A DNA stretch of 64,000 nt from Escherichia coli (GTDB taxonomy: Bacteria; Pseudomonadota; Gammaproteobacteria; Enterobacterales; Enterobacteriaceae): NCBI RefSeq assembly GCF_003018255.1, contig NZ_CP027440.1. One strand, 5' to 3'. Position numbers and translations under genes: made by a program. Below are positions 20,180-23,395 of the stretch, piece after piece. Position 1 is the first letter of the stretch. Each line of letters begins with the position of its first letter. The notes beneath the pieces are model-generated. The model was given only the letters and a program-made list of their open reading frames with translations, searched no databases and was not told the DNA's origin.

Positions 20180-20829
20180 TCAGCCAGAACCAGCACGCGG
20201 GAAACCAGCTTATCAATGCCGCTCGCCGCTTCTGCAATGTTCTGCGCCAGCATATATGCCGGGGTGGTGACAATCTTATTGTCTTCATCAACCACGATAT
20301 CATCGACAGGACATGGCACATGCTCCGCGCCCATCTCTTCCAGCACTTCTGCGGTATCGATATCAGTACCGATGGTCAAACGCAGCGGGAAATCGAAAAT
20401 TTTCGGCAGCATCGCCGGGGCAATACACATAAAACCAAGCGGTTTTCCGGCCTGATGCATCGCTTGTGCCAGCGCCTTTAATTCACGGTCAACGGTGCAT
20501 TCGCTACCAAGACTGGCAAAATTGCTTAAATTCTTCGCCGCGCCAAAACCCCCCGGCACAATCAACGCATCCAGTTCAGCGGCATCGGCCTGGGCCAGAG
20601 GACGGATTTCACCGCGCGTTATTCGTGCCGCTTCAATCAGCACATTGCGCGTTTCCGTCATCGCTTCGCCCGTTAAATGGTTGATAACATCAACCTGCTG
20701 CTTATCCGGTGCAAAGCAGACCGCCTGCGCACCGCTGCGTGAAATAGCTAACAACGTCAACACCGCTTCATGAATTTCAGAACCGTCATAGACGCCGCAT
20801 CCGCTCAGAATTACGCCAATTTTCTTCAT
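20176..20829 (-). CDS. elbB: DJ-1/PfpI-family protein ElbB (YhbL)
   Basis: True start [21 protein letters not shown] (ATG confirmed at 20827-20829 on the minus strand), 217 aa. Confidence 0.9.
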
Positions 20830-20946
20830 TGTGATCATCCTTTCGCAATTGACTGAAACACATTAATTTTTTTAATAAAAATGCTACGCATCACACATTT
20901 AACTGATTCATGTAACAAATCATTTAAGTTTTGCTATCTTAACTGC

Positions 20947-21067
20947 GTGCGGCCTGAAAAACAGTGCTGTGCCCTTGTAACTCATCATAATAATTTACGG
21001 CGCAGCCAAGATTTCCCTGGTGTTGGCGCAGTATTCGCGCACCCCGGTCTAGCCGGGGTCATTTTTT
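20947..21067 (+). ncRNA. arcZ: ArcZ (RyhA/SraH) Hfq-dependent small RNA
   Basis: Sequence GTGCGGCCTGAAAAACAGTGCTGTGCCCTTGTAACTCATCATAATAATTTACGGCGCAGCCAAGATTTCCCTGGTGTTGGCGCAGTATTCGCGCACCCCGGTCTAGCCGGGGTCATTTTTT matches ArcZ as I recall it, including the terminator hairpin and U-tract; located between elbB and arcB and convergent with arcB. Confidence 0.9.
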
Positions 21068-23395
21068 AGTGGCTTTTGCCACCCACGCTTTCAGCACTTC
21101 TACGTCGTGACGCCACTCTTCTTTCATCTCTTCAATCCATTCACCGACGTTATCTTCCCAGGCAGGAAGGTCAGGAGACTGAATTTGCTGACCCAGCTGT
21201 TGCAGATGGCGTAACCCCACTGACCCCGCCGCACCTTTAATTTTATGTCCTTCCTCAACAATGCCTTTTTTATCCTGCGCCGTCAGATTCGACTCCAGCA
21301 CGCTGACATAGCCCGGCATCATCTTCTCAAACACCGCTAACCCGTCGGTGATCAGCTTCGGTCCTACAAGTGCGAGATACTGTTCCAGCATGGGAATATC
21401 GAGCAATGCTTCTGATTTACTGTTCTCTTCTGTCGTCACCGTACTCTCCTCATCATCCTGGGTATCCCAGAATTTCTTGATCATCGCGGTTAGCGCCGGA
21501 ACCGAAAGCGGCTTACTCAGCACATCATCCATTCCAGCATTGAGGTACTCTTGTTTGTCTTTCAGCACGTTAGCGGTTAAGGCCACCAGCGGCGGTAAAT
21601 CCTCGCGCGGATAACGCTTCGTCAGTTCACGAGAGATATCCAGCCCGGTCATATCTGGCAACTGAATATCCAGCAACACCAGGTCGTATTCGCCCGGTTT
21701 AAACATCTCCAGCGCCGCCTTGCCGGTCATGGCGACATCAACGCTGTTACCTAATTTTTCCAGCACAGAACGCGCAACAATCACGTTCAGTTCAATGTCT
21801 TCCACCAGCAGCACATTCAGCGCCGGTAAAGGCATATCGTCTTCATCAAACGCATCATCGACCTCTTCTGCTACCGACGGTGCGTGGATCGTCAACGTAA
21901 AGGTTGAACCTTTGCCCTGTTCGCTGGTAACCGTAATATCGCCGCCCATATTTTTCGCCAGACGACGAGAAACGGCCAGACCAATACCGGTGCCGGTGGC
22001 AGGTTTACCGCCATGACTGTCTTTCACCTGGTAATACATGGCGAAAATTTTATCCAGCTCATCCTGCGGAATGCCGATACCAGAGTCTTCCACTTCAAAA
22101 TGCAGCATATCGCCTTCATCGTAGCGCACGCGCACGGTAACCTGGCCTTGCTGGGTGAATTTGACGGCGTTACTGATGAGATTCCACAGGATCTGCCGTA
22201 AACGCGTCCCGTCGGTAATGACCTGATGCGGTAATGGCAGCGTAGGCTCCAGGTTAAAGCGCAATCCTTTTTGTTGCGCCTGCAATGCGGAAAGATTTTC
22301 CAGATCGGCAAGGAAGCTGGTGAAATCAACCGGCTGATTATCAAGCTGGACCTTACGCCGTTCCATCTTATCCATGTCGATAATATCGTTGAAGATATTC
22401 CCGAGCGTGACGGCCGAAACATGGATGGTTTTGAGATATTTTTCCTGCTCGGCGGTGAGTTCGGTATCCAGCAGAATGCGGCTCAGGCCGACGATACCAT
22501 TCAGCGGTGTACGCAATTCGTGACTGATGGTGGAGATAAACGTCGTTTTGTCGCGGCTGGCCCGTTCAAGCGCATCCTGATACCGCTTACGCTCGGTAAT
22601 GTCGCGACCAAAGCCCATCAAACCGTGACGTTTACCCACGCGGTCGTAGTACGGCACTTTACGGATTTCAAAGCAGGCTTTGCGTCCGTCGGGATAATCC
22701 AGCCACTGCTCATAGGTCAGTGACACATTATGACGGAACACTTTTTCATCGGTTTCAATGACTTTCGCAGCGGCTTCCGGTGAGTAAACATCAGCAGGTT
22801 TCAGATGAACCAGTTGTTTTTCGCTTTTTCCGGTCAGCAGCTCCATCGCGCGGTTACAGCCGGAAAACTCTTTATCTTCGTTACGATAAAAAACCAGGTC
22901 GGGTGAAGCGTCAAGGAAGGAACGTAAGAATGAGGATTGCTGCTCGAGCTGAATTTGTGTCTCTTCGCGCTCTTTGATTTCAATTTTCAGTTGGCCGAAG
23001 GTTTCCTGCAGTTCTGCTTCCGCTTTTTCACGAACGGCGATTTCCTGATTTAGCTGGGCAATATTATCTTTTAACTGAACGTTGAGGCTCAAATCGCGCT
23101 CGCGCATCTCCTCCAGTTTTTGCACCAGTCGTGACAGACGTTGTCGTGACTCCTCCAGTTGCTCGACGACCACCGATAGAAAGTAGACCGCCCACGGCGT
23201 AATCAGCAAACCAAAGAAGATAGAACGAATAACATCAATGCTTTCGACCTGACCATGCAGCACCATGGTTACCGCCATTTGTACCACAATGGCAAGAACG
23301 ACGAGGGCCAGCGCCAGTAACATTGAGAAGCGCACCAGACCTAACTTCATCATCAGGTCAACATAATACTGCGCCAGCAGACGAATTTGCTTCAT
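21059..23395 (-). CDS. arcB: Aerobic respiration control sensor histidine kinase ArcB
   Basis: 778 aa; two N-terminal transmembrane segments, leucine zipper, PAS, HisKA (SHELRTPLN), receiver and HPt domains. Confidence 0.97.
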   Translation of the reverse strand: MKQIRLLAQYYVDLMMKLGLVRFSMLLALALVVLAIVVQMAVTMVLHGQVESIDVIRSIFFGLLITPWAVYFLSVVVEQLEESRQRLSRLVQKLEEMRERDLSLNVQLKDNIAQLNQEIAVREKAEAELQETFGQLKIEIKEREETQIQLEQQSSFLRSFLDASPDLVFYRNEDKEFSGCNRAMELLTGKSEKQLVHLKPADVYSPEAAAKVIETDEKVFRHNVSLTYEQWLDYPDGRKACFEIRKVPYYDRVGKRHGLMGFGRDITERKRYQDALERASRDKTTFISTISHELRTPLNGIVGLSRILLDTELTAEQEKYLKTIHVSAVTLGNIFNDIIDMDKMERRKVQLDNQPVDFTSFLADLENLSALQAQQKGLRFNLEPTLPLPHQVITDGTRLRQILWNLISNAVKFTQQGQVTVRVRYDEGDMLHFEVEDSGIGIPQDELDKIFAMYYQVKDSHGGKPATGTGIGLAVSRRLAKNMGGDITVTSEQGKGSTFTLTIHAPSVAEEVDDAFDEDDMPLPALNVLLVEDIELNVIVARSVLEKLGNSVDVAMTGKAALEMFKPGEYDLVLLDIQLPDMTGLDISRELTKRYPREDLPPLVALTANVLKDKQEYLNAGMDDVLSKPLSVPALTAMIKKFWDTQDDEESTVTTEENSKSEALLDIPMLEQYLALVGPKLITDGLAVFEKMMPGYVSVLESNLTAQDKKGIVEEGHKIKGAAGSVGLRHLQQLGQQIQSPDLPAWEDNVGEWIEEMKEEWRHDVEVLKAWVAKATKK

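Follow-up and report, generated by a model that had tools for sequence, protein, structure and literature searches.

The segment from 20947 to 21067 on the plus strand of the analysed DNA (a stretch of 64,000 nucleotides, hereafter the window) is arcZ, the gene for the full-length 121-nt small RNA ArcZ (also called SraH or RyhA), which lies at its canonical locus on an E. coli-type chromosome and shares its last nine nucleotides with the 3' end of the convergent gene arcB. Taken as a whole, this explanation was given a probability of about 96%. The Rfam model of ArcZ (RF00081) covered 20947-21054 of the plus strand with model positions 1-106 of 106 and scored 120.8 bits (E = 4.1e-27). The gathering score of RF00081 is 66 bits, and the covariance-model search thus upheld by a wide margin the proposal, made in a preliminary description of this DNA, that an ArcZ sRNA is encoded here. 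When the 64-kb window was scanned with all Rfam families, ArcZ was the sole family that reached its gathering score. Moreover, the 121 nucleotides were identical (121/121) to arcZ (b4450) of E. coli K-12, which the MG1655 record annotates as a 121-nt ncRNA at 3350577-3350697 on the plus strand. The same record places the low coordinate of arcB at 3350689 on the minus strand, which gives a 9-nt overlap with arcZ, as in the window. In the surrounding 1.6 kb, 9 of 1601 positions differed from K-12, none of them inside arcZ. The two loci hence share the 121-nt sequence, the elbB and arcB flanks and their orientation, as well as the terminator and the 9 nt of overlap, and the ArcZ RNA of K-12 shows no difference from that of the window. 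Among 5426 complete E. coli genomes, 5416 carried a 401-bp stretch around arcZ between elbB and arcB, 5389 of them at an identity of at least 99%. No observation spoke against the identity or the anatomy of the gene. The features by which ArcZ can be recognized from sequence and published mapping were all present, namely the covariance score, the locus, a 3' core that follows an RNase E site of the form RN↓WUU (the arrow marks the cut) and a terminator with a U-tail.

The gene order at the locus is elbB, arcZ (plus strand) and arcB (minus strand), with arcZ between the two genes and pointing towards arcB. This convergent orientation, already stated in the preliminary description, was evident from the layout of the open reading frames, the K-12 annotation and the NCBIfam assignments of the neighbours. 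The arcB gene (21059-23395, minus strand) encodes the hybrid sensor histidine kinase ArcB of 778 amino acids, which matched the equivalog family NF008302 over residues 1-778 with 1481.5 bits (cutoff 838), and ElbB matched the equivalog NF008747 from end to end with 357.3 bits. The C-terminus of ArcB reads ...AWVAKATKK*, its final codons being AAA AAA. In the 1.6 kb that was compared, which extends to window position 21776, ArcB residue 675 (21371-21373, minus strand) is Ala (GCA) in the window and Glu (GAA) in both K-12 and O145 RM9872; the remaining differences of arcB from these two strains were synonymous.

At the 3' end of arcZ, the intrinsic terminator stem-loop ACCCCGGTCTAGCCGGGGT (21041-21059, plus strand) consists of eight base pairs, six of which are G-C, closed by a 3-nt loop, and is followed by a CA spacer and a tract of six T residues (21062-21067, plus strand). 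The hairpin was present in both the MFE and the centroid folds of the 121-nt RNA. In the MFE fold, whose z-score of -2.7 is modest, the pairing of the 5' end and the core was unlike the Rfam consensus. The terminator scan alone did not rise above chance (one site found, 0.7 expected), and we consider the terminator secure because of its conservation, the covariation of its stem and the mapped 3' end, not because of the scan hit alone. The T6 tract, which becomes the U-tail of ArcZ, is complementary to the two codons at the end of arcB, AAA AAA (Lys-Lys), and the arcB stop codon TGA (21059-21061, minus strand) is the complement of T21059, C21060 and A21061, that is, of the last stem base and the two bases of the CA spacer. 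The stop codon and the two lysine codons make up the 9-nt overlap (21059-21067), which follows from the open reading frame as well as from the K-12 annotation. The hairpin from 21041 to 21058 lies beyond the arcB stop and outside its coding sequence, and only the T-tract falls on arcB sense codons. The view that the ArcZ terminator overlaps the last codons of arcB was consequently right in its coordinates and with regard to the U-tract, whereas the hairpin contributes only one nucleotide (T21059), and this within the stop codon.

The Rfam model ends at 21054 and thus does not cover the overlap bases; the 3' end of ArcZ was placed by means of the terminator scan, together with the annotation of K-12 and published Term-seq results. 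Adams et al. 2021 (PMC7815308, Supplementary file 1) reported a strong plus-strand Term-seq 3' end at K-12 position 3350696, which corresponds to window position 21066. This is the fifth U of the tract, and the annotated end lies one base further on. Comparison with mapped ArcZ ends, which had been suggested along with the original claim, thereby agreed with it as to the position of the terminator. In PMC7815308 this end is classed as arcZ-internal and arcB-antisense and is given three times, in a table that spans three growth conditions. The 3' ends of arcZ and arcB therefore physically overlap, by 9 nt according to the annotation and by 8 nt when the Term-seq end at 21066 is used.

At the other end of the gene, the arcZ promoter was identified from blocks that did not vary when the upstream regions of 19 Enterobacteriaceae genera were aligned; positions are counted from the annotated start (20947). 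One of them, the 12-nt block TTTGCTATCTTA (20930-20941), was the same in all 19 and contains an extended -10 element TGcTATCTT (20932-20940, plus strand; -15 to -7), the hexamer TATCTT occupying -12 to -7. The -35-like hexamer GTAACA (20912-20917, plus strand) is located 17 bp upstream of the -10 hexamer, TAACAA at 20913-20918 being invariant. A consensus promoter scan of 20600-21400 found no sigma-70 site; the combined match of the arcZ -35 and -10 elements, 8/12, is under the threshold of the scan. Upstream of the promoter, the block TCACACATTTAACTGATT (20891-20908, plus strand) is near-invariant in the 19 genera and is a candidate operator, together with the -35 region, for a regulator, possibly phosphorylated ArcA (ArcA-P). 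According to a review, phosphorylated ArcA binds the arcZ promoter region and represses arcZ; no ArcA site upstream of arcZ was detected by ChIP across the genome in another study. By eye, TGTTA-like repeats at 11-bp phasing could be seen on the reverse strand at 20891-20918, as a partial match only.

The literature describes ArcZ as an Hfq-bound sRNA that is processed by RNase E to about 56 nt and activates rpoS translation (PMC11331407 and a review), and PMC11331407 gives its two forms as 121 nt and 56 nt and the RNase E site as RN↓WUU. The window has GA↓UUU and then CCCTGGTGTTGGCGCAGTATTCGCGC at 21010-21040, which fits both this site and the 56-nt product. Judging from the sequence context and the length, the predicted cut lies between A21011 and U21012 (GA↓UUU, then CCCUGGUGUUGGCGCA), and the processed active form would extend from 21012 to 21067 on the plus strand. 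The ArcZ sequence of the window is that of the K-12 RNA used in the Hfq and processing experiments. The 26-nt core with the seed, CCCTGGTGTTGGCGCAGTATTCGCGC (21015-21040, plus strand), was found unchanged in at least 120 species-representative genomes of Enterobacterales.

To the description of the locus, which is real, widely conserved and already covered by primary literature and reviews, we add only a count of how often the exact overlap register and the Lys-Lys tail of ArcB are conserved. The scan of species-representative genomes with the 26-nt core returned at least 120 loci, and the matches listed include Escherichia, Salmonella, Citrobacter, Klebsiella, Enterobacter, Yersinia, Serratia and Rahnella as well as Erwinia, Pantoea, Photorhabdus, Xenorhabdus, Proteus, Providencia and Morganella. 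The geometry was measured in the 107 loci among the matches listed that had enough downstream sequence, the arcB C-terminus being placed by alignment; this sample is biased to genomes that keep the exact 26-nt core. The arcB stop began at the last base of the terminator stem in 91 of these 107 loci (85%, about 35 genera). Among these 91 loci of canonical register, again among the matches listed, the stop codon was TGA in 63 and TAA in 28, ArcB ended in Lys-Lys in every one (91/91), and 14 loci had an overlap of 9 nt, 38 one of 10 nt and 39 one of 11 nt, with T-tracts of 6, 7 and 8, respectively. These counts agree with a review in which the ArcZ/arcB overlap is 'usually ten bases', and the 9-nt overlap of the window, like that of other Escherichia, is among the shortest of those observed.

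In the 58 distinct terminator sequences among the matches listed, stem pairs 1-5 were essentially invariant, and at pairs 6-7 the G-C pair was replaced by A-T on both sides in 7 of the 58, with G-T intermediates in 14 and 6, respectively. The covariation of the stem is real and supports the hairpin. The ArcZ genes of other Enterobacterales (among them Salmonella, Klebsiella, Yersinia, Photorhabdus and Erwinia) have the 26-nt core and the terminator architecture in common with the window, whereas among the matches listed their T-tract is mostly 7-8 nt and their overlap 10-11 nt, compared with 9 nt here. Photorhabdus, Xenorhabdus, Providencia and Proteus have CCCCAA/TTGGGG as their stem.

The overlap was lost or reduced to at most 2 nt, with ArcZ and the convergent arcB kept, in 15 of the 107 loci among the matches listed: 11 in Pantoea, three in Pluralibacter and RIT691 (2-nt overlap) and one in Mixta. 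In the Pantoea exceptions the arcB stop lies 9-20 nt past the hairpin, and in a 16th exception, Chimaeribacter (L063), 87 nt beyond it. The exception loci include L013, L020, L027, L050, L053, L069, L093, L098, L111 and L114 in Pantoea and L045, L046 and L104 in Pluralibacter and its relatives. The Pantoea, Pluralibacter-type and Chimaeribacter loci keep the ArcZ core, the terminator and a TCA spacer, their arcB stops being located 5-87 nt beyond the hairpin, and their ArcB tails no longer end in Lys-Lys, save in L020. Also listed among the exceptions is L112 (Kluyvera genomosp. 3 YDC799), in which the arcB C-terminal alignment scored 247, compared with about 430 in other Kluyvera, with an apparent stop 85 nt past the hairpin; a frameshift or an assembly error probably accounts for this oddity. 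The lineages that have lost the overlap could serve as natural test cases for its importance.

The simplest explanation for the fixed register is a double constraint, since an insertion or deletion in the shared bases damages either the ArcZ terminator and its Hfq-binding tail or the arcB frame. At the same time, the register has been lost in Pantoea and a few other lineages and is therefore not indispensable. With regard to expression, reviews (secondary sources) describe a mutual negative regulation between ArcZ and arcB/ArcA, and according to the secondary literature ArcZ lowers arcB mRNA. The claim in the preliminary description that this is a known arrangement linking the expression of ArcZ and arcB was thus correct in that the arrangement has been described, in one review together with the overlap and the terminator; that the overlap causes the link is partly labelled as speculation in the literature, and the contribution of the overlap itself to the regulation is speculative.

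It is a serious, though less probable, alternative that the overlap arises passively from tight packing and the double constraint, without any regulatory role of its own, and that the link between ArcZ and ArcB consists entirely of the repression of the arcZ promoter by ArcA-P together with effects in trans. This explanation would suit the 15 of 107 loci (among the matches listed) in which the overlap is absent or at most 2 nt long but which retain the ArcZ core, the terminator and a convergent arcB, and the persistence of the YA spacer where it no longer belongs to an arcB stop. Moreover, nine base pairs of which six are A-U make a weak duplex, and the antisense action of arcB mRNA on ArcZ is described in a review as 'speculated'. 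Two negative results also weigh against a mechanistic role of the overlap: the Term-seq tables show no arcB-sense 3' end in the arcZ-elbB interval, and the ChIP study found no ArcA upstream of arcZ. However, the exact register was kept in 85% of the sampled species among the matches listed, and the complementarity between the two transcripts probably far exceeds 9 nt. The latter consideration comes from the arcB strand, on which AAAAAA precedes the hairpin and GCGCGAAUACUGCGCC / GCGCGAAU follows it, without a U-tract. No U-tract was present on this strand in any species among the matches listed, GCGCGAAUACUGCGCC being the complement of the invariant ArcZ core. The lack of a U-tract after the hairpin suggests that arcB transcripts probably pass the stop codon, and the arcB mRNA would then probably extend beyond it and be complementary to ArcZ over more than 9 nt, at least through the terminator and possibly over all of ArcZ.

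Shared terminators are common in convergent gene pairs. Given that the near-perfect inverted repeat allows the same stem-loop to form in both transcripts and that the A-tract AAAAAA precedes the hairpin on the arcB strand, it might be envisaged that the hairpin works as an intrinsic terminator in both directions and stops the arcZ and the arcB transcripts alike. We consider this improbable: the bases after the hairpin on the arcB strand are GCGCGAAUACUGCGCC, without a U-tract, in every species among the matches listed; the terminator scan gave a plus-strand site only; and the Term-seq tables of PMC7815308 contain no minus-strand, arcB-sense 3' end between K-12 positions 3350300 and 3350699. 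A canonical bidirectional terminator, with an A-tract and a U-tract on both strands, was hence rejected. On the plus strand, Supplementary file 2 of PMC7815308 lists a Rho-dependent termination region that is antisense to arcB and lies downstream of the ArcZ terminator, at about 21068-21900. Its best coordinate is about 21831 (K-12 3351461), a value that is imprecise in that the 800-nt upstream counting window just touches the ArcZ 3' end; bicyclomycin raised the downstream reads from 20 to 418, and a Rho score of 15.2 is given. This Rho-sensitive signal could represent either read-through from ArcZ or antisense initiation within arcB.

We also considered whether the register has been selected for a function of its own, for example a pairing of ArcZ with the last codons and the adjoining 3' UTR of arcB that is coupled to ribosome termination, and we regard this as a rather long shot. 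If it were true, the translation status of arcB would decide on duplex formation and on the degradation of arcB mRNA, and a further level of antisense action might come from the bicyclomycin-sensitive plus-strand transcription that passes the ArcZ terminator and reaches about 760 nt into arcB. In the comparable E. coli pair GadY/gadX, the Hfq-binding sRNA is likewise encoded convergently with a regulator gene, to whose mRNA 3' end it is complementary, and it acts similarly as a cis-antisense RNA. GadY pairs with the gadX 3' UTR and stabilises gadX mRNA. ArcZ differs from GadY in that it is reported to lower arcB mRNA and acts mainly in trans through a separate seed; the sequences of the two sRNAs are unrelated.

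For the ArcZ locus itself, our preferred reading joins the observed arrangement to the regulation reported for it as follows. Transcription would start at 20947 from the extended -10 element, to which conservation points, with promoter function and control by ArcA-P as given in the literature. It stops at the intrinsic terminator with its stem at 21041-21059 and its U-tract at 21062-21067, as shown by the sequence, the covariation and the mapped end at 21066. According to the literature, and consistent with the sequence, RNase E would cut the 121-nt RNA behind A21011, and the 56-nt product, which is the active form and bound by Hfq, is described as pairing in trans with rpoS, flhDC, mutS and other mRNAs. 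The convergent arcB uses the same nine base pairs from the other side, taking its stop codon from the last stem base and the CA spacer and its Lys-Lys codons from the complement of the U-tract, as can be read directly from the DNA. Transcripts of arcB that run past the stop would carry sequence complementary to ArcZ, and cis-antisense pairing may then contribute to the reported mutual down-regulation, besides the repression of the arcZ promoter by ArcA-P; for this last step the literature is itself partly speculative.

A mechanically predicted open reading frame with an ATG start (20881-21069, plus strand, 62 aa) spans arcZ, but the idea that it encodes a small protein, and that the region is therefore not, or not only, a non-coding RNA, was rejected as extremely improbable, as this frame starts 66 nt upstream of the arcZ transcription start, the 5' half of arcZ has between-genus indels that are not multiples of three and break the frame, RNA structure and the seed account for the part that is strongly conserved, and the K-12 annotation of the region is ncRNA. 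For annotation, the assignment to ArcZ is of value in that it brings to light a functional gene of the window, arcZ, that is displayed by no ORF track.

The practical consequence of the shared sequence is that editing either the C-terminus of arcB or arcZ affects both genes, and in one study the deletion of arcZ was avoided for this reason. The current understanding of the locus is left unchanged by these results, the species survey putting numbers on what a review had described qualitatively. Three sRNAs activate the translation of RpoS, and ArcZ, one of them, couples the sensing of oxygen and redox state by ArcB/ArcA to the general stress response. In textbooks, both the name ArcZ and the proposed mutual-repression switch go back to the convergent overlap of the gene with arcB.
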